Virus record (IMG/VR): IMGVR_UViG_3300031994_000044
Location: 1-64,000 of that record
Source: a virus
Lineage: Duplodnaviria > Caudoviricetes
Direction: 5' to 3' (one strand)
DNA: 64,000 nt
The translations under genes and the position numbers were made by a program. A model generated the notes under the pieces. It saw nothing but the letters and a program-made list of their open reading frames with translations. It searched no databases and was not told the origin of the DNA. This document shows, piece by piece, positions 2,626-25,373 of this stretch; positions within the stretch are counted from its first letter, which is position 1, and each line of letters begins with the position of its first letter.

Positions 2626-3198
2626 CTATTTATATGCATTTTCCCAATCATAAGAACTAATTTGAGAAGGTCTAAAAAACCCATTCAAGCCTTTCATAGC
2701 CTCACCCAATTGTTTTATAGCGTTATTCACCTGCTCGGTGTATTTGTCATAATTATCCCTCGCATCTCCCCATTTTTCCTGTTGCTGTTTGCAAAGGCTT
2801 ATTTCAGTCTCGCATTCTTGGTCTAATTTTTCACTTATAATTCGGTTTTCACCATTCAAAAAATTGTTGCAGTTATATATCATTAAACCATGTAAGTCTT
2901 TGTCAAAATAGACCCAATTTTCCCCAATTTTCACGTCTCTATTTGACGTGTAAATTTTTAATTCTTTGTGACCCATATTATAAGGGTCTGACATATATAC
3001 GCTTGTTGGCATATCCTTACTTTTCAACTCATCGTTTATTGCATTTGAAAAACGAGCATTGAGGACTTTTCCGTCCATTTTTTTACCTACTTTTTGAATG
3101 ACTCTATAAGTCAATATTACTTCATTGTAGGCTGTAATAATAGCATTTGCCAATACCTCAAATCCTTGCTTGTCAAAATTTCTTGCCCTATAGTCCAT
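2626..3198 (-). CDS. hypothetical protein
   Basis: 190 aa, own promoter, terminator-like hairpin at about 2585-2610. Confidence 0.8.
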   Translation of the reverse strand: MDYRARNFDKQGFEVLANAIITAYNEVILTYRVIQKVGKKMDGKVLNARFSNAINDELKSKDMPTSVYMSDPYNMGHKELKIYTSNRDVKIGENWVYFDKDLHGLMIYNCNNFLNGENRIISEKLDQECETEISLCKQQQEKWGDARDNYDKYTEQVNNAIKQLGEAMKGLNGFFRPSQISSYDWENAYK

Positions 3199-3258
3199 AG
3201 TATTTAATTTTTAATTGGTTATTACATTTATATTAGATAGCAAATATTGTGCCAAACT

Positions 3259-3456
3259 TTAGTCATCTTCGAATAATTTTTCCCATTCCTCTTTAAAATT
3301 ACAACCTCTAAAAGGATAATATATATTAAAAATAGGTAACGTTGATAGGAATATCGCCAAAAAAGGTTCAACGTCTCTATATAACATTTTAGAGAGAGTA
3401 AAACAATATGCTATTGCATAAATTACAATTCCAAAAACTATCAATGCGTCTATCAT
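3259..3456 (-). CDS. small membrane protein
   Basis: 65 aa hydrophobic. Confidence 0.65.
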   Translation of the reverse strand: MIDALIVFGIVIYAIAYCFTLSKMLYRDVEPFLAIFLSTLPIFNIYYPFRGCNFKEEWEKLFEDD

Positions 3457-3514
3457 AATTTATATTTTTAATTGGTTAAACTTCACTTTAATTATATGCA
3501 ATAATCGTACCAAA

Positions 3515-3823
3515 TTACCACATTGTCATAATCTTTTCATAGATTTTTTCTGCTGTTGGAACATATCTGTTGATAGATGCTTGCGCCCCATATTTCCAAC
3601 CAAAATCATCACAAGCCTCTTCTTCAACAAAATCAGTGACATAATCCACAATCACATCCATTGTGTGTGAATATGTATCAAAATCATTATCGTAGTTTTC
3701 GGGAAAATCATCTTTACTCCATAAGTTCTCTTTCATGTAATTGAAGATTCTATCAACCAACATATTGAAGTCGTTATCATCAAGATAATTGTCAATAGTG
3801 TGCGCTCCGTGTTTTGTATTCAT
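3515..3823 (-). CDS. hypothetical acidic protein
   Basis: 102 aa, own promoter. Confidence 0.7.
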   Translation of the reverse strand: MNTKHGAHTIDNYLDDNDFNMLVDRIFNYMKENLWSKDDFPENYDNDFDTYSHTMDVIVDYVTDFVEEEACDDFGWKYGAQASINRYVPTAEKIYEKIMTMW

Positions 3824-3873
3824 AGTGCTTACATTTTATATTCAATACAATTATATACAACAATCGTGCCAAA

Positions 3874-4494
3874 CTATTTGCAATTTGCTTTTATTTCGTT
3901 CTCCAATTCGGAAAACATATTGTCAAGTGTGACTTTCCATGTACACTCTCCACAAAGAGGTGCAGCGGTCATCATTTGGTATTCGCCAAACCTATTGCGA
4001 AATAGCCTAAACATTCTATCATATTGACCTTTGTACAATATTACAATAGCATTGTAGCCGCTTGTATTGGTGTCGCATTGTCTTTTGCCGTGTTGAATTT
4101 CAGCCGTGTAGTTAGTTCCTTTCACGGCATTTTGGGCACATTCAAGCAACTTGGGCATAAGTTCTTCAATACTTGGGGTTTCTTCTCTCTCTGCAAGTTC
4201 TTTTTCCCGATTATCAAGCCATGCACTTACACAATCATAAATAAGTTGGTCTTTGCTGCTTGGCTTATACCATTTGAGGTTTTCCTTGTAAAACCATTCT
4301 TTGTAAAGCACTTGCTTATCAATGTCAAAAGAAATTTCAACACTGCCCCAAATATGCACATAATTCGGGTGATAGCCGTTTCTTCTCAATGGCTCAAAAA
4401 ACTTGTAATCTTCTTCCCTCAAATATTGAAGATGATTATCGAAAAGTTTTTCGCATCTTGCATCTAATTCTTCATACATTTCTCTTGCGGTCAT
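3874..4494 (-). CDS. hypothetical protein
   Basis: 206 aa, own promoter. Confidence 0.8.
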   Translation of the reverse strand: MTAREMYEELDARCEKLFDNHLQYLREEDYKFFEPLRRNGYHPNYVHIWGSVEISFDIDKQVLYKEWFYKENLKWYKPSSKDQLIYDCVSAWLDNREKELAEREETPSIEELMPKLLECAQNAVKGTNYTAEIQHGKRQCDTNTSGYNAIVILYKGQYDRMFRLFRNRFGEYQMMTAAPLCGECTWKVTLDNMFSELENEIKANCK

Positions 4495-4563
4495 AGTAGT
4501 ATAATTTTAATTGGTTAATACTTTCACTTCAATAAGACATCAAAAACTATGCCAAAAATTATA

Positions 4564-4833
4564 TTAAACACTACATTTTGAATAAATTTCTATATTATTA
4601 TAATTCTCCACTCTCCTATTGAAATAGGTGGAAAAATAATCTCTCTCTACTTCCCACTTCTCCCATTCATTACTATAATGGGCAATATTGTGGCCAAGCA
4701 TCCAAACCTCCCAACCGCCATCTTCGTTTTGGTCTATATGGAAATAAAGATATTCCTTTGCAAATTCTTTCAAATCATCGGCTTCGTAATATCTAACAAA
4801 TCCCGCAATGTTCATTTTTATTATGTACTTCAT
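4564..4833 (-). CDS. hypothetical protein
   Basis: 89 aa, own promoter. Confidence 0.7.
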   Translation of the reverse strand: MKYIIKMNIAGFVRYYEADDLKEFAKEYLYFHIDQNEDGGWEVWMLGHNIAHYSNEWEKWEVERDYFSTYFNRRVENYNNIEIYSKCSV

Positions 4834-4952
4834 AGTGCTTTGTATTTAGTGTTCACTATAATATAAGCAAAAAGTGTGCCACAATTTATTTTTTAAATTA
4901 AAAAAGAGAAAGAGATTGAGATTTTTCCCAACCTCTTTCTATTTTGGTTATA

Positions 4953-5570
4953 TCACGCATTTGCGTACATATTCTCTTTTTCAATTATTACCACCACGCT
5001 TTCTTTTGCCTCTTCATTCACACAAAATAATTCACCTTGCTTGAAAAATAAGAGGTTTTCTGCTTTGATTTGGAAAGGTTTAATTTGACTTTCGCCATAC
5101 AAACCAACGCTCTCTTGCTTTGCACTACTGCTATGTTCTACATAAGGTTTTATTACCTCAAACTCTTCTTTTGTAAACTTCCGACCATCAATGTGCTTAT
5201 AAATTGTGGTTGCGTTATTGCCTCTCACTTTTTGTAGGCAAAGATAAAATTGAGTTTCATCTTTGTCGGCAACTGCAATAAAATCGTCAATGTGGTGTTT
5301 TCCCACCATACCTGCGACCTCAAAGGTCTGTCCCTCGATGCCGTTTCTTTTAAAAGCCTTATTTATTGAATTGGCGTAATTGACTCCGCCCATACAATTT
5401 ATTACACTTTCTTTGTAACAATCACCATAAAAGGGATTTTTTTTAGGTAATTTTGGCGCGCTCACATAAGATATGCAAAGCATTTCACCCTTTACCACTT
5501 TGCGGAATGAGTTAATGATGTTGTTGATTTGGTTGTCACTGATTTGTTGGTTTCTTGCATTTGTTTTCAT
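4953..5570 (-). CDS. hypothetical phage protein
   Basis: 205 aa, own promoter. Confidence 0.8.
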   Translation of the reverse strand: MKTNARNQQISDNQINNIINSFRKVVKGEMLCISYVSAPKLPKKNPFYGDCYKESVINCMGGVNYANSINKAFKRNGIEGQTFEVAGMVGKHHIDDFIAVADKDETQFYLCLQKVRGNNATTIYKHIDGRKFTKEEFEVIKPYVEHSSSAKQESVGLYGESQIKPFQIKAENLLFFKQGELFCVNEEAKESVVVIIEKENMYANA

Positions 5571-5650
5571 AACTTATAATTTTAATTGGTTTGTTATACT
5601 TGTTACTATACAAATCTTGTGCCGTTTTTTATTTTTTCTCGATTTTTTTT

Positions 5651-5908
5651 TTATTTTATTTCCCATATCCATTTCCACCCATTTGTCGTGTAATCTTCGA
5701 CAAATTCCTCCCTTTTATTTATTGCGGCAACTGACAATTTTATATCTTTACGGCAAAGGTGATACGCATTGCCACCAACATTTTCACGACAAGCAAAACT
5801 AATTATTATATAGGTGTATTTTTCATTTACCCACCCAAATACTTCGTCAAAGTGTTTGAGGTTTATCTTCTTTGCCTTTGCTATTTTTTCCAAAATTGCC
5901 TTATTCAT
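5651..5908 (-). CDS. hypothetical protein
   Basis: Start moved to MNKAILEK at 5908; promoter at 5941-5956. Confidence 0.65.
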   Translation of the reverse strand: MNKAILEKIAKAKKINLKHFDEVFGWVNEKYTYIIISFACRENVGGNAYHLCRKDIKLSVAAINKREEFVEDYTTNGWKWIWEIK

Positions 5909-5980
5909 AATTTTTATCTCTTTGTTCACTACAATAAGAAAGCAAATATTGTGCCAAATTATCCATGACAAACAAAATAA

Positions 5981-6226
5981 TTACCAAGTTTTTTCTTTAT
6001 CAACTGAATAGAATTGTTTGCCCATAATTTCTTCAAGATAACATTTAAAATTAAAATTGCCACGATAATGAAGATGAGCAGCAAATTCACCGACAAATAC
6101 ACTGCAACCGTTTTTATCAGTTACATCACGACCACTTTCGCATATTACATAACTCTTTTCTCTGTGGTAATTAAAAGTCCCCAAAGCCAAAGCGATAGCA
6201 TAATCTTGATTATTTGTAATCTCCAT
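5981..6226 (-). CDS. hypothetical protein
   Basis: 81 aa, own promoter. Confidence 0.7.
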   Translation of the reverse strand: MEITNNQDYAIALALGTFNYHREKSYVICESGRDVTDKNGCSVFVGEFAAHLHYRGNFNFKCYLEEIMGKQFYSVDKEKTW

Positions 6227-6363
6227 ATCTTTATAATTTAATTGGTTAAAACTTTCACTTCAATAAGAATACAAATATCATACCAAACTATTACGTATTT
6301 GCGTACATTTAATAAAAAAAAGCGGAATTTTTCAATCCCGCTTGTTATTGCCGTTGTTGTGGA

Positions 6364-6954
6364 CTATCTTTCAACCCACATAAGATTTTTCACATCGTTA
6401 TTGTGATAGTCACCATCAATATGTATTACCTCATTGAGTTTTATATCGTGTTCACCCATAAAAGCATCCGCCACCATATACTTTACATCGGAGGTTGTGC
6501 GTTTTCCCTCTTTATCGTTGAGGGTAAACTGCATCGCATTTCTTGTTGGCGTATCATAACCGCTTGTAATTTTACATTTCATTACATCGCCACAATCAAT
6601 TATCTTAATTCGCCCTTTATCCGAAACCTCATAGAACATTGAATAATCGACATTGCCGCCGAAGTATCTACCTATATTTTGTATCGGCAACCATTTTTCG
6701 CCTTCAAAAAGAGTTATTTGTTTTGCAACCTCTTGATTATTCAAAAGAACAATTTGCTCGAAATAATCGCTTATCGTCATACCTTTCGGCTTCTTTATTG
6801 CTGTTTTCTTTTTGGGCAAATAAACAATCTTTTTACCCTGTTCTACAAAATCAAGCACATCTACGCCATACTTTGTAGCTATCATTCTCGCTGTTGTTTT
6901 AGCGCTCATTCCCTGCGGAATTACAAAGGTGTCATTTTTCTTAATCATATCCAT
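6364..6954 (-). CDS. NUMOD4/HNH endonuclease-like protein
   Basis: EKWLPI...YEVSDKGRIK (NUMOD4-like) and VIHIDGDYHNNDVKNLMWV (HNH_3-like). Confidence 0.7.
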   Translation of the reverse strand: MDMIKKNDTFVIPQGMSAKTTARMIATKYGVDVLDFVEQGKKIVYLPKKKTAIKKPKGMTISDYFEQIVLLNNQEVAKQITLFEGEKWLPIQNIGRYFGGNVDYSMFYEVSDKGRIKIIDCGDVMKCKITSGYDTPTRNAMQFTLNDKEGKRTTSDVKYMVADAFMGEHDIKLNEVIHIDGDYHNNDVKNLMWVER

Positions 6955-7066
6955 AATTTTTATTGGTTACTTATACTTTTATTTAATCAAAGATTATGCC
7001 AAACTGATTTTTTTAACCTGACAATTTGTCATAAAGAACGTTTTTTTTCGCGACAATTTGTCAGTA

Positions 7067-7453
7067 TCATTTTGTCAGCCTTTTTATTTCATTTGCCAAT
7101 TCTTTACCTTTAATATCTATATCTTTTATGTTTATAACACTATCAGCAACAAACCTAAATTCTTTGCCCATACTATCATTTTTGTGGTCTGCAAAGAACG
7201 ACAAAATCCCAAGATTAGTTTTTACTTCATTCTCATTGCCCAAATCAATAACATATATTGTGTTGTTCTCACTGATAGAATTTGCCCTCAAATAATATAT
7301 ACCATGTCTATCAACAAATATATTAGAGTACACACTGACACGCTCCATTTTAGCAAAACCTTTGCCGCCTCTTTGTTTAGCAATACTAAATACCTGCGCA
7401 CTCATTGTCATTGTAATACCTAAAAACAGCATTGTAAATATAATCTTTTTCAT
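7067..7453 (-). CDS. secreted/periplasmic hypothetical protein
   Basis: Signal peptide MKKIIFTMLFLGITMTMSA/Q, Bacteroidota-style Q after cleavage site. Confidence 0.7.
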   Translation of the reverse strand: MKKIIFTMLFLGITMTMSAQVFSIAKQRGGKGFAKMERVSVYSNIFVDRHGIYYLRANSISENNTIYVIDLGNENEVKTNLGILSFFADHKNDSMGKEFRFVADSVINIKDIDIKGKELANEIKRLTK

Positions 7454-7605
7454 ATCAATTATAATTTTAATCGTTCTCTTATATTTTTCTTCTATACAAA
7501 TATCATTCCGTTTTTAATTAGAATTGATATAAATTACAAAAAAAGATAAAAAAAATGAGGCGTTTTCACAACGCCCCACGTATTAAAAACCTTTACTCTT
7601 TTTAC

Positions 7606-7869
7606 TTATCCATGAATTTTTTTTATTTTTTCATACGAATACATTTGTATTTGGCGGCACACCTTATTATTTATAACAACAAACGTTTTATTTGTTTCCT
7701 CACTGACAAGTTTTGTTGCACAATCACCATACACATCTAACATTGATTTTACCATCTTTTCAATCCTCTCCTTAGCCTCACTTTCAGTGCTACAAGGATG
7801 ATAAATAGGTGCGCTTTCAATTCCGTTGGTGCTTGAACTTGCTGTCACTAAAAAAATTTCTTTTTCCAT
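7606..7869 (-). CDS. hypothetical protein
   Basis: 87 aa, first gene of leftward cluster. Confidence 0.7.
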   Translation of the reverse strand: MEKEIFLVTASSSTNGIESAPIYHPCSTESEAKERIEKMVKSMLDVYGDCATKLVSEETNKTFVVINNKVCRQIQMYSYEKIKKIHG

Positions 7870-7962
7870 ATCTTTATGTTTTTAATTGGTTACACATACC
7901 TTAATCTTATCAAAGACCATACCAAACTGATTTAGATTTTGTCTAAATTATCATTTTTTTTA

Positions 7963-8498: not shown

Positions 8499-8578
8499 TT
8501 CCGTTATGACAACAGAAAAAAGAAGGGCGGCGAAAGATTCGCTGCCCTTATGGAACACGCATTGAATGTGGTTACATT
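8499..8578 (-). repeat. duplicated 3' element with intrinsic terminator (copy 1)
   Basis: About 80 nt highly similar to 11935-12013; hairpin AAGGGCAGCG..CGCCGCCCTT plus T tract. Confidence 0.85.
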
Positions 8579-8791: not shown

Positions 8792-8906
8792 TTATAATTA
8801 TAAATAGGTTATTATACTTATACAGAAAAATTTCTTAATAACCAAATCTTAGTGCCATCATGTATATAATTTCCATAAATTTTACAAATCCCTAATAGTT
8901 TACTGC

Positions 8907-9403
8907 GTTGTAATTACCATTATAAAAAAGATATTCAACAATTGAAACGCTTTCGGAATGCCGTAACTATCGTTGTAATTACCTTTATAAGAAAGGTATT
9001 CAACAATACATCGATACAAGACCTCTACTTCAACAGAGTTGTAATTACCTTTATAAGAAAGGTATTCAACAATACACAACAGAAAAGGAAACGGAAACAA
9101 CACGTTGTAATTACCTTTATAAGAAAGGTATTCAACAATAGGCAATAATAACATACAATTCCAATCAACGTTGTAATTACCTTTATAAGAAAGGTATTCA
9201 ACAATTCAAGACCTATGCTGATGTGTGTACGCTTAGTTGTAATTACCTTTATAAGAAAGGTATTCAACAATAAATGCCGTTCTTGGGGTCTTTTATGTAG
9301 TGTTGTAATTACCTTTATAAGAAAGGTATTCAACAATATCAACTGTAGTCAGGTACATATTATCGACGTTGTAATTACCTTTATAAGAAAGGTATTCAAC
9401 AAT
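8907..9403 (-). CRISPR. CRISPR array, 8 x 36-nt repeats, 7 spacers (29-30 nt)
   Basis: Repeat (minus) ATTGTTGAATACCTTTCTTATAAAGGTAATTACAAC starting at 8907, 8972, 9038, 9104, 9170, 9236, 9302, 9368; the 8907 copy has 3 mismatches (trailer end). Confidence 0.98.
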
Positions 9404-9469
9404 ATGATATTTATAATTTATTAATAAACAAAGTATTATTTAACAATTTTTTATTAAAAAAAGGCATAA

Positions 9470-11764
9470 TTAATCACATATTATTTGATACATATCCTTT
9501 TTTTTGAATATATTAAGTATTGAAGATGGTATTTTCTTTTTAAAAGTATCTTTGATATTATAGAGGGGGTTACCGTATCTATTATTTTCTTTTGTCTTAG
9601 TACACATTGTTAGAAGCAAATCGTTATTTTCGGCTATGTATTTAATATTATTTGCTGCATTAAAGTCAGCATTAAGACCATTTATATGGAATTCTTGTTT
9701 GGTTCTAACTTTGCGTTTGTCTATTAGTTGTAATTGTTTCTTATTATTTTTATCCATGATTTCTTTGACATAGATTTTATGTGTATTGCTATCCATTTGT
9801 GATGTAAAGGCCGCAGGGACAAAAATAACATTCATATTAGTATTATTAGACAATTGCACGAATTTGTCTTTTATGTCAGCAAAACCGATTGCCTTAATAA
9901 CCAGATTCTTAAACCGTTTTTTTTGTATTTCCTTTAAACCATAAACAGAATATGAAATGTCTTTTATGGTTTCGTTTTCATTAAAAATGAAATTATAATA
10001 TTTGGTATTAAAAACTGATTTATCAATTTCTGAATATTTTTTACCTTCAAAGCCATAATATGTCATAAGTGATTTAGCCGTTGGGAATGGTAATCTGTCT
10101 CTTTCAAAATTTGATGAATCAAGGTATTCAAGACCAATAGTATCAAAGCCATTTAGTACAATAACATCATATGCATATTTAATTATATTATCTCTACAGC
10201 CAACAATATCACATTTGACGTTTTCAAGTTTAACTATCAATCCTTTTGCAATATCTGTATTGATAAATGGGTTTTCAAATCTACGAGGGTCCATTGTTTC
10301 TTTTGAATTTGTTGATATATCAGAAAATCCCATTTTGTCATCATATTCATGATTTTTTTCATAGTATTTTTGTTTAAGGATAAAATATGATTTATATTTT
10401 GAACGAAGCATCTTGGTGTAATCAATATATGATGCAATCTTACAATTTTTATCTCTATACTTTTTGGCAAGATTATCAAGAGTTTGGCTAATCGCTATTT
10501 CTCTTTTAAGTAAGGTTTCATCTGTTATTGATACATTATTCTTTTTATCATACTGATTAGAAACACGTTCAAATAGTGATGGAATCTCTAAAAGTCCAAA
10601 AGAAACAAATTTTGCCATTTCAGTATAATAGGCAAGTTCTTCTTTGTTCAAAGTTGAAACAAAGTCTTTATTTTTTAAAAGTTCAACATAGATATTAATA
10701 TAGCCTTTCACTTTCCCGTTATCGGTAATTGAAGTTGCAAGCATTGAATGTTTTGTGTTAATATCAATACCTAATATATTTTTTATTTCTTGCTCTTTTT
10801 TTGAAAAATCTTTTTCGCTTGAGAAAGTAAAGAACAATGTTTTGCCTTTAACTTCAAAAGTTAAATCATATCCATGTTTGGAAGAAATATCTACTAAATC
10901 GACACGGTTTCCATTGTTATCAACCTTAACGGTTTGTCTATTACCCATTAAGTTTATATCATATGGCTTTTTATCTAACACAAGATGAAGAATATAAGAA
11001 GTAAGGCCATGTTTTTTTAATAGCATTTTTTGCATTTGAACAGTCATTGTTTTTCTGTTTCCGTTTCTTCTACAGCCATTGAATGATTTAAGACTTTCGA
11101 CGGCGTGTTTTTCTATTTCTTCATTAATTTCGTTTTTATGTTTAGTGTAATAATCAAATAAGAGTTCTAATCTTTTTATTTTTTCATCATTTGGCGTTTC
11201 ACGATTTTTAAAATAGGTAATTAAATTTTCAAAATCGGTTTCAGATTCAATTTTTTTATTGACAACTTCAAAAATTGTTTGTGTTTTAATTAATTGTTCG
11301 GTTACTGAATTAATGTCTATTTTTGAATATTTAACATTAGGTTTTAAAGTAACAAATTTTGTTCTATAATTACTGATTACATTTTTAACATATCCATTTC
11401 TTCTGAAATATGTATCTCCAAGTCCTAATATATTTTTTCCTTTATATCCATCAGCATTTAAAACTTTAATTGCTTCATACAATGCATTATCAGCATTCTT
11501 TTTTTGTGAAGAATTTAAATTTAATGAAAAAATTTTATATAATGGTAAATCTTTTATATCATCATTTAAGACAAATTTACAATAAACATTTTCTTTATTT
11601 TTAATATAATTTGCCAAATCTCCGATTTTCATTGATGTAAGATTATCACAAATGAAATCGCTGGTTCTATTGTAATAGTTTATGTACTCTTCAATTGCCG
11701 GTTCAAATAAAGACATAATGTCATCAATAGCCACATTCGACTTAAAAACATAAGATTTATTCAT
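9470..11764 (-). CDS. cas12: compact type V CRISPR effector, Cas-lambda-like RuvC nuclease
   Basis: 764 aa adjacent to array; RuvC-I LGIDIN, RuvC-II IGLEYL, RuvC-III NADFNAANNI; PAAFTSQMDS; ATTGTTG...ACAAC repeat resembles Cas-lambda repeats. Confidence 0.88.
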   Translation of the reverse strand: MNKSYVFKSNVAIDDIMSLFEPAIEEYINYYNRTSDFICDNLTSMKIGDLANYIKNKENVYCKFVLNDDIKDLPLYKIFSLNLNSSQKKNADNALYEAIKVLNADGYKGKNILGLGDTYFRRNGYVKNVISNYRTKFVTLKPNVKYSKIDINSVTEQLIKTQTIFEVVNKKIESETDFENLITYFKNRETPNDEKIKRLELLFDYYTKHKNEINEEIEKHAVESLKSFNGCRRNGNRKTMTVQMQKMLLKKHGLTSYILHLVLDKKPYDINLMGNRQTVKVDNNGNRVDLVDISSKHGYDLTFEVKGKTLFFTFSSEKDFSKKEQEIKNILGIDINTKHSMLATSITDNGKVKGYINIYVELLKNKDFVSTLNKEELAYYTEMAKFVSFGLLEIPSLFERVSNQYDKKNNVSITDETLLKREIAISQTLDNLAKKYRDKNCKIASYIDYTKMLRSKYKSYFILKQKYYEKNHEYDDKMGFSDISTNSKETMDPRRFENPFINTDIAKGLIVKLENVKCDIVGCRDNIIKYAYDVIVLNGFDTIGLEYLDSSNFERDRLPFPTAKSLMTYYGFEGKKYSEIDKSVFNTKYYNFIFNENETIKDISYSVYGLKEIQKKRFKNLVIKAIGFADIKDKFVQLSNNTNMNVIFVPAAFTSQMDSNTHKIYVKEIMDKNNKKQLQLIDKRKVRTKQEFHINGLNADFNAANNIKYIAENNDLLLTMCTKTKENNRYGNPLYNIKDTFKKKIPSSILNIFKKKDMYQIICD

Positions 11765-11853
11765 TTTTTTTATTTTAGTTAAATAAAACTTTCTTATTTA
11801 AAATTACAAATTAAATTTTAAAATTCAAAATGTTTTTATTTTAATTTGTACGC

Positions 11854-11869
11854 ATCAAATATTGTGCCA
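11854..11869 (-). promoter_or_regulatory. sigma54-like promoter of cas gene
   Basis: TGGCACAATATTTGAT, same class as early-gene promoters. Confidence 0.7.
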
Positions 11870-11934
11870 AACTTTTAATTAATATACAATTTATTAAGGG
11901 AACTATATACTTGATGGCACAAAAGTAAACATAA

Positions 11935-12013
11935 TTCCGTTACAGCAACAAAAAAAGAAGGGCGGCGAAAGGTTCGCTGCCCTTATGAAACACGCACTTA
12001 ATGTCGTTACATT
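11935..12013 (-). repeat. duplicated 3' element with terminator (copy 2)
   Basis: Matches 8499-8578; directly follows the ATPase stop. Confidence 0.85.
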
Positions 12014-12034
12014 TGACAATGTTAAGCGTGTTGC

Positions 12035-13597
12035 TTAATCATTAAAAAACGCAAGTCTTACTGCATTACTATAAGCCTCTTTGTAGTTTCTTATGTAATC
12101 TTGGGCATCATCATTGTTCCAATAGTCACATTTTTGCATTGCTGATGATTCGCAAGCCAGAAATGCTGCAATACTATATCTATCTTCTTCTGCAAGATTT
12201 TTAAATATCTTTTCATAGAAAGCATGGTCTTGATTGATAAGGACATAGGTTTTTCCGTTCCTTTGTTCAATATCGTACATAAATCCAAACGGACCATCAC
12301 TGATAAATTCAAATCCACCAATCCATTCACCAGTTCTTTTCTTTGTTGGATTAGGATTGTTTTGTGGTTTTGGGTTTGGATTTTTTTGTTTTGGGTTATT
12401 ACACTTTTCGTTCTTACTCTTTTGCTTCATTGTGCCAGCAAGCAAAGTGTTTTTGTTAAGTCTGTCAGCTGTTTGCTCAAGTGACTTTTTCATTTCTTCT
12501 GTCACTTTTTCTTCTTTAGTTTCTTTATGCTGTTTATTGTCTGTTTGTTTGGCCAAAGGTCTAACAATATTTGAAAGCATATCGTAAAAGCCTTGGTCCA
12601 TAGTTGATTTGTCTTTTTCTGTAACCATTTTTGCAAATGTAGTTCCAAAAAATCTGTCAGCGTTTCCATCCATAAATAATTCAAAACGGAAACCGTTTGT
12701 CCAACAACTGCTTTTATAACACATTCCTAAATCAAGACCTTTTCCAACAAGACGATTTTGCCTATAAACATAAATACCAGCCAATTCATTTGACCTACCA
12801 AAATAATCATCAAATGTCGCACTTTGTACATTTTTTGGAATGTACCATGCTTTCCATTCCATTCTGCTTCCGCCATATTCAAAAGCACCGTAGTCCATAA
12901 GTTCAACACCAAGTCCAGATTTGTTGCCAATAGTGTCAAAGAATGTGAGTTTCTTTCCGTTGACATTAAAATTGCAAGTGTTAGACTCAATGTATTTATT
13001 AAACAAAATTCTCATTTGTCTTATCAATGTACCTTCAAAGCTATGATAATCTTTACACGAAATTCTGTCAAGATTTGAAATAATAACTATTGTACCGTGA
13101 TTTGACTTTGTGTTTTCAAAAAAGAAAGAATATTCTTCAGTGTTTTCCGCATAAGACTTAATTCTAACATTAAGTTCACCTTCATCTGAAATATCATCCA
13201 AATCAAGATTTGCAACAAAAAGTTCACCTTCTTCAACTTTTGAATACACAGAAAGATGTGTACCAATTGAAATTGATGCTGTTTTAAGGCCAGCGCCATA
13301 GCATCCAAGATTATAATCCTTGCTTTTTCCTGTTTCAGAGCCAAGAGACATGGCCATCATAAGAGTTTCTTCATCCATTCCACACCCATCATCACAAATC
13401 ATAATTTTACCAACTGTTTTCTTGTCATCTGCTTTGATGAGTTTAATGTAAATGTTCTCAGATTCAACATCTGGCTCAAGAGAATTGTCAACAATGTCGG
13501 CAATTGCTGTGTAATTAGTGTAATTTAATTGTCTAAGAGCATCTTTAATAAAGTTTGCTCTAACTTTAAAAGGAAAATTTTTCTCCATGTTAATCAC
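12035..13597 (-). CDS. GHKL (HATPase_c_3 / MORC-like) ATPase
   Basis: AIADIVDNS, DDGCGM, LGCYGAGLKTAS, HGTIVIISNL motifs; GIYVYRQNRLV S5-like domain. Confidence 0.85.
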   Translation of the reverse strand: MINMEKNFPFKVRANFIKDALRQLNYTNYTAIADIVDNSLEPDVESENIYIKLIKADDKKTVGKIMICDDGCGMDEETLMMAMSLGSETGKSKDYNLGCYGAGLKTASISIGTHLSVYSKVEEGELFVANLDLDDISDEGELNVRIKSYAENTEEYSFFFENTKSNHGTIVIISNLDRISCKDYHSFEGTLIRQMRILFNKYIESNTCNFNVNGKKLTFFDTIGNKSGLGVELMDYGAFEYGGSRMEWKAWYIPKNVQSATFDDYFGRSNELAGIYVYRQNRLVGKGLDLGMCYKSSCWTNGFRFELFMDGNADRFFGTTFAKMVTEKDKSTMDQGFYDMLSNIVRPLAKQTDNKQHKETKEEKVTEEMKKSLEQTADRLNKNTLLAGTMKQKSKNEKCNNPKQKNPNPKPQNNPNPTKKRTGEWIGGFEFISDGPFGFMYDIEQRNGKTYVLINQDHAFYEKIFKNLAEEDRYSIAAFLACESSAMQKCDYWNNDDAQDYIRNYKEAYSNAVRLAFFND

Positions 13598-13736
13598 CCC
13601 TCACTACTTCTATTATTATTAACGCTCTCTAAATGGCATCGTGAAAGGATTTAATATTATTTCCATTCAAAAAGCAAAACTATTTAAATGATTTTTTCTA
13701 AATATACACATTTAATTTGAAAAAAACAAATTATTT

Positions 13737-13894
13737 GTGTCATCATGTATATAATTTCCTAATTTTTTATAAAAAATCCCTAAAGGGATTAGTTATCATT
13801 ACCTTTATAAGAAAAATATTTGTACACAACAAAAATTGTGCCAAACTTTTAATTAATATACAATTTATTAAGGGAACTATATACTTGATGGCAC
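13737..13894 (-). mobile_element. 158-bp internally deleted copy of the CRISPR cassette with a solitary degenerate repeat
   Basis: 13737-13791 resembles 8852-8906; 13792-13820 matches repeat 25/29; 13835-13894 identical to 11861-11920. Confidence 0.85.
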
Positions 13895-13900
13895 GAAATT

Positions 13901-14707: not shown

Positions 14708-15853
14708 ATGGATAAGGATAAAAGTTTTGTTCCAACTGTAGAATGGATGGCCAAAAAATATGACGAAATGAACGCCGAATTATTCGAAGGAAAATTGGGT
14801 ACATGTGATTTTGATGTATTTACAATTGGTCGTGGGTCAGGCGGTAGTGTTCTTGGTTGGTTTAAAATAACAGGCAGCGGAATTAAAATAGACTTAAGAT
14901 ACAGAAAAATGTATGTTCAAAATTATTATTTAGGGAAAGAACTTGTTAATAAAGATAATTTTGTTGAAATATGCAAACCAAAAATTGAATTAAATGGTAA
15001 CTACCATGGTACTGAACATGGATTTTTATGTACTTTGGTCCACGAAATGTGCCATTATTATACTTATATGGATGGATGGGCTCCCACTCAAGCACATGGT
15101 AGAGAATTCAAGGAAATTGGTTATCTTGTTTCTTCAAGGTCTAATGGCTTATTTACAATTCAAAGGCTTGCAAGTGCTGAACAAATGTCAGAATTTGAAT
15201 TAAACGATGAAATGAAGGCTAAAAAAGAAAAAAGAATTTCAAACAAAAAATCAAAAGTAACAGCAGTAATTGTATTTAGAAATAATGGAAAAATAGAGTT
15301 AACATTAACTTCAAATGACAAATTAATTGATATAATTAAATCCCATTACGATGAAAAAGGCGAAAAAGTTGTTGTTACAAAAGATAAAAATATAATTGAT
15401 TTTTTGTTTTCTAAACATTATAATCAAGATATGAGAACATGGAAAGTATGGTATCTTGATGAAGCGCCGTGGATTGAAGAATTTAAATCTATGTTAAACT
15501 ATAATAATAAGCCGCAAAACGACATATTACCGGTAAAGGAAAAGGCCCCAAAGAAGACTTTTTGTATAAAGACAACAAACGGCACCTTTGAATGTGATGC
15601 AACTTCAGAAGAAAATTTAATAAATTCGATTAAAAAACAATTTCCGAAAATGAGTGACGAAACAATACAAAGGATAATAAACAATCCATCAAACTATAAA
15701 ATGAACGAAAGGAAAAAAAATATAAAAAGCATAATCAATGAAGTAATTGATGAATTCATTGAAAATGAGAATTTAAACAATAGAAAAGGCAGTATTGAAA
15801 TTAATCCAAATATGAATTTGGGTGTATATTCTCCTTTGGAACTTAATAATTAA
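14708..15853 (+). CDS. SprT-like zinc metalloprotease domain protein
   Basis: TLVHEMCHY...AHGREF. Confidence 0.8.
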   Translation: MDKDKSFVPTVEWMAKKYDEMNAELFEGKLGTCDFDVFTIGRGSGGSVLGWFKITGSGIKIDLRYRKMYVQNYYLGKELVNKDNFVEICKPKIELNGNYHGTEHGFLCTLVHEMCHYYTYMDGWAPTQAHGREFKEIGYLVSSRSNGLFTIQRLASAEQMSEFELNDEMKAKKEKRISNKKSKVTAVIVFRNNGKIELTLTSNDKLIDIIKSHYDEKGEKVVVTKDKNIIDFLFSKHYNQDMRTWKVWYLDEAPWIEEFKSMLNYNNKPQNDILPVKEKAPKKTFCIKTTNGTFECDATSEENLINSIKKQFPKMSDETIQRIINNPSNYKMNERKKNIKSIINEVIDEFIENENLNNRKGSIEINPNMNLGVYSPLELNN

Positions 15854-15872
15854 TAAAAAAAAAACAATATAT

Positions 15873-16682
15873 ATGTCAAGATTAGGACCAAAATTAATAA
15901 ATTTCCATAGCAGTGGCAATACAGAAGTGCCATTAGAGTTATTGGAATATGGCGAAATAGCCGTAAGACACTATTCAGCCGATACGGGTGCAGAACTAAT
16001 TATAAAAACTTCAGAAAGTACAAGTGCGATTTTTATTGAAAGCGGGAAGATTGCATCTATGATTTCCGATATAGATTGTGGGTCATGGGAAGAAGAGCCA
16101 CCAACGCCAGCCCATGAATATATCGACCTTGGGTTGCCTTCGGGTAGAAAATGGGCAACTTGCAATATAGGTGCTGAAACACCTACAGAAAAAGGTCTGT
16201 ATTTTGCATGGGGAGAGATTAGCGGTTATACCGCTTCTCAAGTTGGTAGTAAAAGAAACTTCAATCAGCAAAATTATCGTTTTTATTCCGCAAGTACAAT
16301 GACAAAATATAATGCAAGTGATGGAAAAACTGTTCTGGATGCCGAAGATGATGCTGCAACTGCAAATTGGGGCAGTGATTGGAGAATGCCAACCAGGGAA
16401 GAAATGATTGAACTTTCGGCCAATACTATCAGTAGGTTTATTACAGCAGAGCAGGTTGTTGTTTTTTCAAGTAAAACAAATGATAATGTCCTCATATTAC
16501 CTGTCGGTGGTTATGCAACAGGTAATAATATAACAGGTATAACTGAGTATGCTGATTATTGGTCAAATACTAGAAGTAGCAATGTTTCAAATGCGGCTAG
16601 ACTTTTCAGAGGCGGCTCAAGTACCAATGTTTCAGATTTAAGCCGTTGGTACGGTATGTTTATCCGTCCAGTCCTTAAATAA
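15873..16682 (+). CDS. YxDLGLPSG / C-type-lectin-fold (DUF1566-like) receptor-binding-like protein
   Basis: HEYIDLGLPSGRKWATCNIGA, WRMPT, YWS...GMFIRPV; paralog of 48966-49760; start moved to MSRLGPK. Confidence 0.75.
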   Translation: MSRLGPKLINFHSSGNTEVPLELLEYGEIAVRHYSADTGAELIIKTSESTSAIFIESGKIASMISDIDCGSWEEEPPTPAHEYIDLGLPSGRKWATCNIGAETPTEKGLYFAWGEISGYTASQVGSKRNFNQQNYRFYSASTMTKYNASDGKTVLDAEDDAATANWGSDWRMPTREEMIELSANTISRFITAEQVVVFSSKTNDNVLILPVGGYATGNNITGITEYADYWSNTRSSNVSNAARLFRGGSSTNVSDLSRWYGMFIRPVLK

Positions 16683-20924: not shown

Positions 20925-21117
20925 GCTGGCATAAGGTCTTTTTCCTTAACATTTCTAAAGCCTTTCGATAATCCATGAATCTACTTGAAATTCGCTAGTT
21001 CAAGGAGTAATATTACCTCTCCCTTCACCCATTTATTTTAACAGTTTAGGGCTTGTACTGCTACCGTTCACGCTATCTGGTTCTACGCCTGTCTTTATAC
21101 TCGTCAGTATTGAGTTG

Positions 21118-21199
21118 TCGGAATGGTGGGATTCGAACCCACACGCCTTTCGGCACAACGTTCTTAGCGTTGCGAGTCTGCCAGTTCCTCCACATTCCG
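21118..21199 (-). tRNA. tRNA-Leu(AAG)
   Basis: CAACG-CT AAG AA-CGTTG, Leu-type variable arm TGCCGAAAGGCGT. Confidence 0.9.
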
Positions 21200-21208
21200 T
21201 AAAAAAAA

Positions 21209-21276
21209 CGGAAAACGGGTTTCAGTGGTACAAATTAACAGTTTGTTACTAAAAATAATTTGCTGTATGTTTTCCT
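21209..21276 (-). ncRNA. ACAGCAA-motif RNA with Asn-like anticodon hairpin
   Basis: GGAAAAC/GTTTTCC closing helix, ATACAGCAA, ACAAA-CT GTT AA-TTTGT, no T arm. Confidence 0.6.
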
Positions 21277-21280
21277 ATTG

Positions 21281-21377
21281 TCGGAACTGTAGGAATCGAA
21301 CCTACCCGAAGTTATTTGTCTAGAATTATTACCTTCACCTACACCATCATAGGCATGTCTCCATCCATCAAATTCCG
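21281..21377 (-). ncRNA. atypical tRNA-like RNA
   Basis: CGGAATT/AGTTCCG acceptor, perfect T arm, 6-nt anticodon-position loop, long variable arm. Confidence 0.55.
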
Positions 21378-21392
21378 ATTTTTTATGATTTG

Positions 21393-21518
21393 CTCCGTGG
21401 GAAAGATTCGAACTTTCGGCTAATGGGTTTACTTTGGTAAATTATATTGCTGTTAATTTTTTTGCCAAAAAATATTTTTTCTACACTCCCATTGCTCTAC
21501 CTCTGAGCTACACACGGA
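21393..21518 (-). ncRNA. tRNA body with about 60-nt ACAGCAA insert replacing the anticodon loop
   Basis: Canonical D arm GCTC/GAGC, ATGGG/CCCAT stem and T arm. Confidence 0.7.
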
Positions 21519-21657
21519 TTACAATTTTCTTCCATAGTCAATGGCTTATGACCGCATTATAGAAAATTAAAAAGACTTTCCTTCAGTTACGCTGAAGCAT
21601 CTGTTTGATTTATTCAGGGACAAATGACGTTACGTTGAGGCGCGACCTCTTAAAATG

Positions 21658-21733
21658 TTGGCCCGACAGGATTTGAACCTGTAAATCTCCTGAGTCAAAG
21701 TCAGGCGTGTTAACCAGGTTACACCACGGGCCA
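21658..21733 (-). tRNA. tRNA-Gln(TTG)
   Basis: CCTGA-CT TTG AC-TCAGG. Confidence 0.92.
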
Positions 21734-21796
21734 TTAAAAATATGTATCATATAATGCATAATTAAAAATATGTATCATATAGTACATATTTAAAAG

Positions 21797-21871
21797 TGGA
21801 CCCAATCAGATTCGAACTGATAAAATGCCGCCGTGCAAGGGCGGTCCTGTACCAATTGAAGGCATAGGCCC
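21797..21871 (-). tRNA. tRNA-Ala(TGC)
   Basis: CCGCC-CT TGC AC-GGCGG, G3:U70. Confidence 0.9.
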
Positions 21872-21963
21872 TTTAAAATGGAGGGGTTTAAAATGAACTT
21901 AATTTGGATGTTCGGAAACTATTCTTGACACATTTGGTACCCTCCCAAGAATAATTAATAATG

Positions 21964-22038
21964 TCGGTTAGGGTGGACTCGAACCACCGACCTCAAACTT
22001 ATCAGGTTTGCCATCTAAACCAACTGATATACTAACCG
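21964..22038 (-). tRNA. tRNA-Ile(GAT)
   Basis: CAAAC-CT GAT AA-GTTTG. Confidence 0.92.
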
Positions 22039-22045
22039 TTGAATG

Positions 22046-22208
22046 TACCCGGTAGGGGATTCGAACCCCTGATTTCAAGGATGGCTTCCTTGCAATGTAT
22101 CGAACATTCTTCATACTCACCATGATTAAAGCAAGGAAAAACTTTTTTCACAGAGAAAAGTAAAACTGTATAAAACCTTGCGTCCTAGGCCAGCTAGACG
22201 AACCGGGC
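22046..22208 (-). tRNA. tRNA-Glu(TTC) with 88-nt intron (22084-22171)
   Basis: Removing insert restores CAAGG-TT TTC AT-CCTTG. Confidence 0.8.
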
Positions 22209-22210
22209 AA

Positions 22211-22660
22211 AAAGCAGCGATTTGGTTCGCTGTCAACCTGCTAAATGCGCTGCCTTAGGCTGCTGCATAAGCAAAAGCATAATTTTCGTTGCCAGTTATT
22301 TTATGGCATCTCGGATGTCTACTTTCATTGTACTCATTAGCAATCAATTCCAAGATGGCCCATATTATTTTTTTTGTCGGATGCCAGGGAGTTGAACCCC
22401 AATTTTAAACCCGAATCAAAATTTTCAAATTACTTGATATTGTACCATGAATCATAAGAACCGTATAACTAGTATGGTTGGTACTCAACATGGCGCACCC
22501 GTTATTAAAACCGTGCTTTCCACGGATTAGACTAAGTTCGCCTTCTTTATACTTCAGAGATATACGTCTCAAGTGCGCCAACTTAGTAAAACCAACACTT
22601 CGTGGACCATAAGGGACTCGAACCCTTGTCTTACTCAACTTTCCTTTGATTATCAACAAC
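22211..22660 (-). ncRNA. ssrA: circularly permuted (two-piece) tmRNA
   Basis: Acceptor piece (T arm plus ATGGTCC-A, about 22660-22603) precedes coding piece (GGGCCAT at 22361; tag GNENYAFAYAAA* 22293-22255); G3:U70. Confidence 0.88.
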
Positions 22661-22670
22661 AAACCGATTG

Positions 22671-22743
22671 TGGGGTGTTATGGAATCGAACCATAGTGAC
22701 AGGTCTGTCGAACCTGCATCCTAAACCGCTAAATGAACTCCCC
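22671..22743 (-). tRNA. tRNA-Val(GAC)-like, atypical (C33)
   Basis: CAGGT-TC GAC AG-ACCTG, A73, one acceptor mismatch. Confidence 0.6.
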
Positions 22744-22873
22744 ATGTAAGAAATTTACATTTCACTATCGTGCCTCCACCATGAGACGCTTGGCGACTTT
22801 ATGTGGCCCGCACTAACTTTTCGTACTTGTTTAAGGTACGTGTGTCCTTCTTTCCTTATATTTTTTAGATTAC

Positions 22874-23002
22874 AGGAATCTATTTATTTTCCATTTCACT
22901 ATGCAGCCATCGGTTCCCCTAAAGCCGCAGTTGGACTCGAACCAACAATCTTTGTTTTGCTTACAAATGTGTTTACCTATTGTAACTTGCTGTTAAATTC
23001 CT
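22874..23002 (-). ncRNA. ACAGCAA-motif RNA with permuted-tRNA (YrlA-like) topology
   Basis: AGGAATTTA/TAGATTCCT closing helix; T arm, loop-closed 7-bp TGCGGCT/GGCTGCA acceptor-like stem, D-like segment. Confidence 0.65.
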
Positions 23003-23012
23003 TTTAATCTAG

Positions 23013-23086
23013 CGGGCCTGACGGGATTCGAACCCGCACCACACGCCGTGACAGGGCGGCATTGTAAACCATTCAACCACAGGCCC
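23013..23086 (-). tRNA. tRNA-Asp(GTC)
   Basis: CCGCC-CT GTC AC-GGCGT. Confidence 0.92.
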
Positions 23087-23279
23087 AATAAAGAAAGGTT
23101 TATGGCATCTTCTTAACTATGCCAACATCTGTTTTAGAGCTCGCAACCTTTCAAACAAAGCTTCCTCGGTACTTCACCACTCACCTCGGTTTAGGTGTAG
23201 TCCTGTCGCTCTACAAGTGCGCTAAATCTTTAATGAATTTAGAAACATGTTCTGACGGTTAAGCGTCATTGTTTTTCTC

Positions 23280-23368
23280 AGAAATCATTTACTGCACCAT
23301 TGCAATCAGCCCATAACGGCTAATATTAGAATCGAACTAATCAAGTTGACATTTGCTGTTAGATTTCT
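23280..23368 (-). ncRNA. ACAGCAA-motif RNA with permuted-tRNA (YrlA-like) topology
   Basis: AGAAATC/GATTTCT closing helix; ATTAG-TTCGATT-CTAAT; ATTAGCC/GGCTGAT; TGCA-ATGG-TGCA. Confidence 0.65.
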
Positions 23369-23377
23369 TAAGTTTAG

Positions 23378-23538
23378 CGGGAGAGGTGGGGTTCGAACCC
23401 ACGACCCACAGATTAGTTCTTGTAGTAAAAGTCGAATTTACTGACCTAGGATGACCGTCAATACAAGAATCAATTTGTTTTCAGAAGTTATTTCTCCTGT
23501 ATACAGTCTGTTGCGCTAACCAGCTACGCTACTCTCCC
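23378..23538 (-). tRNA. tRNA-Asn(GTT) with 87-nt intron (23416-23502)
   Basis: Removing insert restores ACAGA-CT GTT AA-TCTGT. Confidence 0.85.
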
Positions 23539-23546
23539 TTAAAAAA

Positions 23547-23632
23547 CAGGAAACGATATTTATGGAATCGAACCATTTCAATTTTATTTTCAGTAAAATC
23601 TTTAACCTTTTAAAATTTGCTGTATGTTTCCT
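23547..23632 (-). ncRNA. ACAGCAA-motif RNA with Phe-like anticodon arm and T arm
   Basis: AGGAAAC/GTTTCCT; TTTTA-CT GAA AA-TAAAA; ATGG-TTCGATT-CCAT. Confidence 0.6.
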
Positions 23633-23762
23633 TTATTTTTAATTCTTTTATAAATATACAAAAAATAATTTTCTTAAAAAATCAACGGTTCACAATAGAA
23701 CTTCTCACGGTAAAATCCATGGCTTCATTAGGCAAAGCTTCGTTGATTAAGATTTTTTTCAG

Positions 23763-23844
23763 TACCCCAGGTGGGATTCGAACCCACAATGGCTATGCCA
23801 CCACAGCCTAAATGTGGCCCCTATACCATTTCGGGTACTGAGGC
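23763..23844 (-). tRNA. tRNA-Leu(TAG)
   Basis: CCACA-TT TAG GC-TGTGG, long variable arm. Confidence 0.9.
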
Positions 23845-23850
23845 ATATTG

Positions 23851-23921
23851 AGCAGAATATCGGTGTCGAACCGATACCTTGACCTTGGGAAGGTCATATA
23901 CTGCCGCTATACTAATTCTGC
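23851..23921 (-). tRNA. tRNA-Gly(CCC)
   Basis: TGACC-TT CCC AA-GGTCA, U73. Confidence 0.88.
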
Positions 23922-23925
23922 ATTG

Positions 23926-24086
23926 TGGGAAAGGGTGGACTCGAACCACCAGTCTCAAAAGAGAACGGATTGCCAATGTGGTAAATTACGAATTTACGAT
24001 ACTTCATTATTCACATTGGATGGTTTTTACATGTTTACCTTCATGTATTACAGTCCGCGCGGCTACCAATTACCGGTTACTTTCCC
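23926..24086 (-). tRNA. tRNA-Tyr(GTA) with 77-nt intron (23972-24048)
   Basis: Removing insert restores GCGGA-CT GTA AA-TCCGT. Confidence 0.85.
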
Positions 24087-24099
24087 ATTAAAAATCATG

Positions 24100-24171
24100 A
24101 GCCCCCTACCTGAATTGAACAGGTATTTTCGGGTTACAAAGCCGATGTAATAACCATTATACTAAGGAGGC
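24100..24171 (-). tRNA. tRNA-Thr(TGT)
   Basis: TCGGC-TT TGT AA-CCCGA. Confidence 0.85.
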
Positions 24172-24182
24172 AACAAAATAAA

Positions 24183-24243
24183 CGGAAATCCATCAAAAAA
24201 AACATACCATAATTTTTATAAAGATATTGCTGTTGAATTTCCT
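24183..24243 (-). ncRNA. minimal ACAGCAA-motif RNA
   Basis: GGAAATTCA/TGGATTTCC closing helix plus ACAGCAA. Confidence 0.55.
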
Positions 24244-24244
24244 G

Positions 24245-24326
24245 TGGCCAAGGTGGGACTCGAACCCACACGCCTTTCGGCACATGATTTTGAGTCATGG
24301 GTGTCTACCAATTCCACCACTTGGCC
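24245..24326 (-). tRNA. tRNA-Leu(CAA)
   Basis: CATGA-CT CAA AA-TCATG. Confidence 0.92.
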
Positions 24327-24339
24327 ATTGTTAAATTAG

Positions 24340-24459
24340 TCGGGACGTTTGGATTCGAACCAAAACCACGGAAACCCAAATTCATTGCTAAAATATTGCT
24401 GTAAAATTCCGTGTCTGAAATCATAAATGCTACGTGTGCTACCGTTACACCACATCCCA
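24340..24459 (-). ncRNA. tRNA-Pro(TGG)-like RNA with 49-nt ACAGCAA insert in anticodon stem
   Basis: Removing 24384-24432 gives CGGAA-TT TGG GT-TTCCG. Confidence 0.65.
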
Positions 24460-24585
24460 TTAGAAGAGTTTCACTTATGTCCTCTCAGCTGCGTGGGCCC
24501 ACACCCTGAGACGGTTGCTGCACTAAGAAGGAAACACCCAGACGCTCTTCCGAGCGAAAGGAAAACTACTCTACAGCTTTTCACG

Positions 24586-24657
24586 TTGTCTCACCGCGAC
24601 TCGAACACGGACCAAGAGAACCAAAATCTCTTGTGCTAACCATTACACCATGAGACA
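24586..24657 (-). tRNA. tRNA-Gln(TTG), second copy
   Basis: AGAGA-TT TTG GT-TCTCT. Confidence 0.9.
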
Positions 24658-24666
24658 ATTTTAAAG

Positions 24667-24795: not shown

Positions 24796-24799
24796 ATGT

Positions 24800-24930: not shown

Positions 24931-24945
24931 ATTGAAGAATATATG

Positions 24946-25203: not shown

Positions 25204-25211
25204 AACTTTTT

Positions 25212-25285: not shown

Positions 25286-25295
25286 TTAGCGTTTG

Positions 25296-25369: not shown

Positions 25370-25373
25370 ATAT

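Follow-up and report, generated by a model that had tools for sequence, protein, structure and literature searches.

The window analysed here covers the first 64 kb of a phage genome of 106,307 bp (GC 31.7%), which is contained in DNA and RNA libraries of sheep gut origin. The minus strand of the window carries a short unit with a solitary degenerate CRISPR repeat (hereafter the mini unit), a gene for a GHKL ATPase, and a gene for a Cas-lambda effector followed by a CRISPR array. The coordinates of these and of the associated features are collected in Table 1. Searched against the PDB, the effector matched Cas-lambda2 (9izp, E 2.8e-145) and Cas-lambda1 (8dc2, E 6.5e-116), and its RuvC residues D334, E546 and D700 were invariant in a 14-member family alignment. 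Effector sequences identical (P0001) and 80% identical (P0002) to the phage Cas-lambda exist. No match was retrieved in a scan of viral contigs with the single Cas-lambda sequence, or by blastn against GenBank phages.

The ATPase gene is located directly upstream of cas-lambda, and its likely start is the ATG at 13591, behind GAGGGG. Comparison of its product with the MzaB models of NCBIfam and PADLOC gave values of 1e-22 to 1e-23, below the curated cut-off. A single-sequence scan of viral contigs found no match for the ATPase, and PHROGs held none for the effector, the ATPase or two upstream ORFs. The ATPase ORF was present on long contigs in three sheep-gut (rumen) metatranscriptome libraries, with contig ends at 13654, 13562 and 13680; these data consist of assembled contigs, from which neither a 47-nt RNA nor a start site nor a strand can be read, and the gap in their coverage at 13681-13841 carries no weight. 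The interval 13681-13841 is covered by DNA run X5. Among other observations in the window, two paralogous stretches at 15852-16393 and 48945-49468, 72-80% identical, lie in plus-strand genes, one of which has a weak Lcl_C-like domain, and a cluster of tRNA-like genes at 21100-27400 showed up in the repeat scan by its repeated T-arm sequences.

Table 1. Features of the mini unit and of the neighbouring Cas-lambda cassette
Feature	Coordinates	Strand	Basis or remark
23-nt motif, forward	8852..8874	minus	32 nt after terminal repeat
CRISPR array, 8 repeats and 7 spacers	8907..9403	minus	repeat scan; directly 3' of cas-lambda gene
Cas-lambda effector, 764 aa	9470..11764	minus	PDB matches and family alignment
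Promoter block of cas-lambda gene, 23-nt motif and TGGCAC-N5-TTG at 11856-11869	11844..11924	minus	
23-nt motif	11898..11920	plus	part of cas promoter block
Conserved 3' element with terminator, after ATPase gene	11935..12034	minus	80% mean column identity, L034 and L052 copies included
GHKL (HATPase_c_3, MzaB-like) ATPase gene	12035..13597	minus	Pfam 8.5e-22
23-nt motif GGAAATTATATACATGATGACAC, forward, downstream bracket of mini unit	13737..13759	minus	145 nt before ATPase ATG
Hairpin AATCCC/GGGATT then T-run, intrinsic-terminator-like	13767..13790	minus	terminator scan and folding
Solitary degenerate Cas-lambda repeat, 36-nt register	13792..13827	minus	25/29 and 26/36 matches
81-nt promoter block of mini unit	13818..13898	minus	95% identical to 11844-11924
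Sigma-54-like promoter motif TGGCAC-N5-TTG, TGGCACAATTTTTG	13830..13843	minus	14-copy motif family
23-nt motif GGGAACTATATACTTGATGGCAC, reversed vs minus-strand genes, upstream bracket of mini unit	13872..13894	plus	

The array is built of 36-nt repeats and 30-nt spacers, and its terminal repeat (8907-8942) is degenerate, with three mismatches. A pattern ATTGTTG...ACAAC was common to the repeats of 28 related Cas-lambda loci, in which the array was always located 3' of the cas gene, and the constancy of this pattern and of the cas-then-array order fixed the transcribed strand of the repeat. For spacer 5 (9074-9103), a seed of 11 nt behind TTA matched at genome position 99272, which is beyond the window, with 13/18 matches overall; this self-match was not significant, the chance estimate being about 0.06 over the seven spacers.

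The structure of Cas-lambda2 indicates which parts of such a repeat are held by the protein. Its scaffold is the whole 36-nt repeat, in which positions -33 to -30 (GUUG) pair with positions -4 to -1 (CAAC) in a 5-bp outer stem that runs from G(-33):C(-1) onward and sits in the WED/RuvC groove; Arg271 and Asn625 recognise the closing pair, and Tyr709 touches the adjacent phosphate (PMC12141684). The inner stem-loop is mostly solvent-exposed, except for a U-rich loop that is read base-specifically, processing follows a ruler mechanism that cuts the spacer after 16-18 nt, and TTR serves as PAM (PMC12141684). Residues were mapped through the alignment with the PDB match, where the chain index equals the number used in that paper plus 10. 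By our reading of this alignment, Arg271, Asn625 and Tyr709 would correspond to R276, N641 and Y730 of the phage effector, and all three were invariant in the Cas-lambda family alignment. On the side of the repeat, an alignment that included the solitary copy showed columns 3-7 (TGTTG) and 33 (the first C of CAAC) to be invariant in 15 genuine repeats from 14 loci.

An earlier note on this DNA had reported a degenerate repeat at 13792-13820, a promoter motif upstream of it and a terminator-like sequence downstream, and all three observations were confirmed. Against the 3' 29 nt of the array repeat, 13792-13820 matched at 25 positions, and the 36-nt register 13792-13827 at 26; homology to the repeat was confined to the former interval, 13821-13827 being promoter-block sequence. 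When shuffled versions of the 22 kb surrounding the cas locus were searched with the 27-nt repeat core, allowing up to six mismatches, no match was obtained; in the whole genome of 106,307 bp, with up to seven mismatches allowed, the core matched nothing but the array and 13792-13820. The solitary repeat is single, lies outside any array in a mobile element, and is 4.4 kb away from the array. A search of IMG/VR with the repeat core returned 78 single matches, the best of which belonged to a single recurring sequence that is unrelated; none continued into the repeat. The one match found in 185,579 species genomes, with GC-rich, non-repetitive flanks, was set aside as looking like chance.

The earlier note further held that two C-to-T changes in the stem keep the hairpin of the repeat through G:U pairs. 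Both stem changes were indeed C to T on the transcribed strand, in alignment columns 12 and 13, the loop CUUAU was unchanged, and all seven inner-stem pairings were formally possible, two of them as G:U. The stability of the hairpin, however, was only -0.2 kcal/mol vs -7.0 kcal/mol for the canonical repeat, its centroid structure was unfolded, and 184 of 200 shuffles folded as well. The column-12 change is common to the solitary repeat and the degenerate terminal repeat 8907-8942, indicating descent from a terminal repeat. Changes of C to T are the expected drift in an AT-rich genome (32% GC) and, by our own reasoning, when two GC-to-AT transitions fall on four G/C stem positions, pairing is retained in three of the six combinations. 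With one change inherited, drift expected, half of the combinations pairing anyway and a hairpin of near-zero stability, the argument from G:U rescue is therefore weak.

In the outer stem of the solitary copy, only one of four pairs is possible. CAAC has become TAAC, and the 5' strand is replaced by promoter-block sequence; even if present, this strand would stay untranscribed because the predicted start falls inside the repeat. The six columns concerned (3-7 and 33) are the only ones invariant in the 15 genuine repeats, and the solitary copy alone departs from them, at all six. Judged by the outer stem with its protein-read G(-33):C(-1), the solitary copy does not qualify as a Cas-lambda scaffold.

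Immediately upstream of the solitary repeat lies a putative promoter, recognized by its motif. Exact matches to TGGCAC-N5-TTG, including the copy at 13830-13843, numbered 14, all on the minus strand, vs 0.34 expected. Minus-strand sites of the form TGGCAC-N5-TTG(C/A/T) were located at 293-7924, 11856-11869, 13830-13843, 25190-25203 and 28033-28046. About 17 early genes carry a TGGCAC-type motif 33-46 nt upstream of the ATG; these genes are consecutive, the motif also precedes cas-lambda, and its layout is of the sigma-54 type (-24/-12). The same promoter class was found upstream of non-coding tRNA blocks. Control of early genes by RpoN-type promoters would be unusual for a phage. The copy at 13830-13843 is perfectly preserved, yet it lies 241 nt from the next ATG, vs the usual 33-46 nt. 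From the -24/-12 geometry, transcription of the solitary repeat is predicted to start at about 13817, and a transcript of about 47 nt, from about 13817 to about 13768, is plausible.

The predicted end of this transcript coincides with the terminator-like element, AATCCC-TTTA-GGGATT followed by TTTTAT at 13775-13790, which forms six pairs; two terminator-like sites were found vs 0.1 expected. The 51-nt stretch 13767-13817, which contains the hairpin, folded at -8.6 kcal/mol, and it is the 18 nt after the solitary repeat that fold into the terminator hairpin. Taken as a pseudo-spacer, this sequence had no TTR-flanked site with at least 14/18 matches or a seed of at least 8 in the 106-kb genome, the null mean being 0.55. 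The 3' half of the hairpin, TTAGGGATTT, is homologous to the flank that follows the array (8886-8895); its 5' arm and a longer T-run are present in the mini unit and absent after the real array. A hit of the Rfam family CRISPR-DR17 on the terminator hairpin (23.4 bits vs a gathering score of 42, E 0.72 on 7 kb) was judged a chance resemblance, and no other Rfam family matched.

Comparison of the two loci revealed that the unit 13737-13898 is a miniature of the neighbouring cassette 8852-11924, without the cas gene and without spacers. The two promoter blocks share 60 consecutive identical bases, from the 23-nt motif through TGGCACAAT, and a 24-nt stretch of the cas promoter block is identical upstream of the cas gene in loci L007 and L008. 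At the other end, the distance from repeat to 23-nt motif is 32 nt both in the mini unit and after the terminal repeat of the array, and TTAGGGATTT is common to both. Thus, the upstream and downstream flanks of the mini unit both match those of the intact cassette, and a degenerate repeat is kept with neither a cas gene nor a spacer between promoter and stump. Divergence between the paralogues was 0-5% in the promoter and motifs and 14% in the repeat stump, with indels in the 3' flank, indicating that, within the unit, constraint is weakest on the stump. No solitary repeat was seen upstream within 8 kb of the cas gene in any of the 28 related Cas-lambda loci (34-52% effector identity). In run X5, short-sided joints at 13818 and 13824 were disregarded as likely cross-matches of the duplicated promoter block.

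Both units are bracketed by a 23-nt motif (GGAAATTATATACATGATGGCAC and variants), of which the 106,307-bp genome holds only four copies. These form two inverted pairs (20/23), one around cas and array (8852-11920) and the other around the solitary repeat (13737-13894); they delimit the only two motif-bracketed units in the genome, which lie in tandem and have no dispersed copies. No target-site duplication was found, the flanks in direct reading being CCAAATCTTA and AAAAGTAAAC for the cassette and CAAATTATTT and GAAATTTTAG for the mini unit. The possibility that the motif is itself a sigma-54 or sigma-70 promoter was rejected: TTGC is missing at the spacing required, and copies of the motif point either way with respect to genes. 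As GGGAAC-TATATAC(A/T)TGATGGCAC, the motif recurs intergenically in L030, L031, L034, L035, L040, L044, L046, L049, L050 and L052. In these rumen phage contigs it frequently follows a terminator directly or immediately precedes a small cargo gene, whichever way it points, and inverted pairs of it sometimes enclose one gene, such as a 90-aa gene in L050 (9310-9662).

Each unit is followed by a cargo gene, namely the GHKL MzaB-like ATPase gene for the mini unit and a 60-aa ORF for the cassette. The conserved 3' element that follows the ATPase gene has a paralogue at 8499-8578, after the 60-aa ORF, and further copies in L034 (5581-5658) and L052 (913-1005). This element of about 90 nt is non-coding yet about 80-85% identical between copies, and it ends in a terminator, GGGCAGCGAAC-CTTTCGCCGCCC plus a T-run. 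The cargo genes that precede it differ, both in this phage and in other rumen phages.

The explanation that we favour, with a probability of about 0.6, is that a second, paralogous Cas-lambda cassette once existed and that the solitary repeat is what a deletion left of its last repeat. The flanks are paralogous to those of the intact cassette, the cas gene and the spacers are lost, and so are the family-invariant bases of the outer stem. We propose that two tandem units were built on one framework, which on the minus strand would comprise a reversed 23-nt motif, a sigma-54-like promoter, an insert, a forward 23-nt motif, a cargo gene and the conserved 3' element, with a terminator between insert and forward motif in the first unit (13737-13898). 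The insert of the second unit would be cas-lambda and its array. In the first, a deletion would have run from about +10 of the promoter to the 3' 28 nt of the last repeat, with its junction at a short AAT/ATA microhomology, leaving an intact cas-promoter copy joined to what remained of the repeat and to the module of terminator and motif ahead of the next gene. The retained promoter probably still fires at about 13817, and most transcripts would stop at the hairpin and U-run, at about 13768, to give a by-product leader RNA of about 47 nt. Such an RNA would be unable to form the Cas-lambda scaffold and would have neither guide nor decoy function, and a separate start below the hairpin would account for most expression of the GHKL ATPase.

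Several lines of evidence argue for a deletion relic. They include the paralogy of the flanks, the loss of the scaffold determinants, the marginal hairpin, the absence of the element from all 28 related loci and the precedent of a Francisella remnant discussed below; in addition, the ATPase gene and the 60-aa ORF, downstream of the two units, end in the same 3' element. Other observations count against it. A perfect promoter copy so far from the ATG would fit a dedicated small-RNA gene, all the more as this promoter class also precedes tRNA blocks; the 5' arm of the hairpin and the longer T-run, absent after the array, could reflect selection for a defined 3' end; and the CUUAU loop has been kept together with the seven inner-stem pairings. 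Moreover, validated Racrs likewise deviate from the repeats of their hosts (PMC10651486).

These same observations are the ones that speak for a functional crRNA-like small RNA of about 47 nt, transcribed from the early-class promoter and acting as a Racr-like decoy or as a tuner of Cas-lambda. Its inner stem-loop and U-rich loop would bind the Cas-lambda of the phage itself or of a rival without guiding it, and would titrate the effector or time its loading. An arrangement of promoter, repeat and terminator is typical of viral solitary repeat units (PMC10651486), standalone repeats upstream of cas12a are common and thought to be functional, and the part that has been kept here, loop and inner-stem pairing, includes the loop that Cas-lambda2 reads base-specifically. 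The perfect promoter copy 241 nt from the ATG and a complete hairpin with U-run, missing at the end of the real array, would also be in keeping with a dedicated RNA. However, none of the outer-stem bases that are invariant in the family survives, the 5' strand is upstream of the start predicted for the RNA, the hairpin has a folding energy of -0.2 kcal/mol, one of the two supposedly compensated changes was inherited from an already decayed terminal repeat, the element is absent from the 28 related loci, and a decoy directed against the phage's own effector needs a special rationale. We consider such a small RNA unlikely, although better placed than the other alternatives. A more specific version of it is less probable again, namely that the truncated-repeat RNA of about 47 nt would bind Cas-lambda through the inner stem-loop, with the scaffold incomplete, and serve as a non-guiding decoy against rivals' Cas-lambda or as a brake on the phage's own effector. 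If true, it would be the first RNA anti-CRISPR against a virus-encoded CRISPR system, born from a wrecked duplicated cassette. The earlier note had interpreted the element along these lines, as a crRNA mimic or regulatory RNA that tunes the phage Cas, jams a host system or attenuates the ATPase gene. The anatomy behind that interpretation, a promoter motif leading into a repeat stump and then into a hairpin with T-run, holds. The Cas-related function does not, a role as Cas ligand being poorly supported in view of the outer-stem loss, the weak G:U argument, the explanation as a deletion copy, the lack of the unit in all 28 loci and the lack of a TTR-flanked target.

Two further explanations assign the stump a role in DNA or in the ATPase mRNA. 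The 23-nt inverted motifs might mark an exchangeable or mobile cassette, of which the mini unit would be a non-autonomous, MITE-like or "emptied" form and possibly a landing pad for recapture of the cassette by recombination, the stump having no role as RNA. The inverted ends (20/23), present around both units and nowhere else in the genome, resemble the terminal inverted repeats of MITEs, the motif encloses a 90-aa gene in L050 and adjoins variable cargo genes in other rumen phages, and recombinational recapture has been proposed for the Francisella remnant (PMC10120712). Neither unit shows a target-site duplication, though, and there are only two units, in tandem, as is not expected of MITEs; no transposase or recombinase was identified nearby, run X5 contained no trustworthy inversion or excision joint, and homology between the units reaches well inside their ends, as a duplication would give. 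This explanation appears improbable, below the small RNA in either version. The least probable alternative is that of a cis-acting leader of the ATPase mRNA, in which read-through would place the stump in a long 5' UTR to be bound or cut by Cas-lambda, the ruler cut falling 16-18 nt after 13792, and would couple ATPase expression to the level of Cas-lambda. No TGGCAC-type motif other than that of the mini unit lies upstream of the ATPase gene, this gene directly precedes cas-lambda, and Cas-lambda cuts 16-18 nt past a recognised repeat; by contrast, the scaffold defects weigh on a leader exactly as they do on a decoy, a terminator-like hairpin lies in between, and the adjacency of ATPase and Cas is not conserved, no ATPase homologue having been found next to Cas-lambda in 130 fetched loci.

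If the mini unit is a deletion relic, simple loss of sequence within a duplicated CRISPR-Cas cassette is enough to produce, in a virus, a solitary repeat that has a promoter of its own. Remnants of this kind could serve as raw material for the evolution of RNA anti-CRISPRs or cr-like regulators. They also call for caution, in that a decoy RNA should not be deduced from the combination of repeat, promoter and terminator alone, and asking which family-invariant scaffold bases survive is a test applicable to other type V systems. Finally, the framework of 23-nt motif, sigma-54-like promoter, cargo gene and 3' element bears on the swapping of defence cargo in rumen phages.

The solitary repeat can be compared with several known systems. 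Racrs are described as unassociated with cas genes and as directed at the system of the host (Camara-Wilpert et al. 2023, PMC10651486). Here, by contrast, the cognate cas-lambda cassette resides in the same phage, 2 kb away, and the element is a stump without the part of the repeat that its effector family holds and with a marginal hairpin. Like CreA/CreR, tracr-L and crlRNA (PMC10120712; bioRxiv 10.1101/2023.03.10.532045; 10.1101/2024.10.29.618823), it is a degenerate repeat near a cas gene in a separate transcription unit. It differs from the CreR and crlRNA mini-arrays in having one repeat rather than two, in lacking PAM-flanked partial complementarity to promoters of the genome, and in not being conserved, with 0/28 related loci at 34-52% effector identity. 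With degenerate terminal repeats of arrays it shares a derived substitution and the downstream flank, both in common with the terminal repeat of the phage's own array, but it is detached from the array and stands behind a promoter. The closest parallel is found in Francisella hispaniensis, where the flanks of a lost type V-A CRISPR-cas locus are unchanged and enclose a solitary repeat unit together with the last, divergent repeat (Shmakov et al., PMC10120712). In both cases the flanks match those of an intact locus, cas genes and spacers are gone, a degenerate last repeat is kept, and the system is of type V and tracr-less. What sets the phage apart from Francisella is that the intact and emptied versions lie 1.8 kb apart in one genome as tandem paralogues, that a preserved cas-promoter copy is joined directly to the stump, and that the effector is a phage Cas-lambda.
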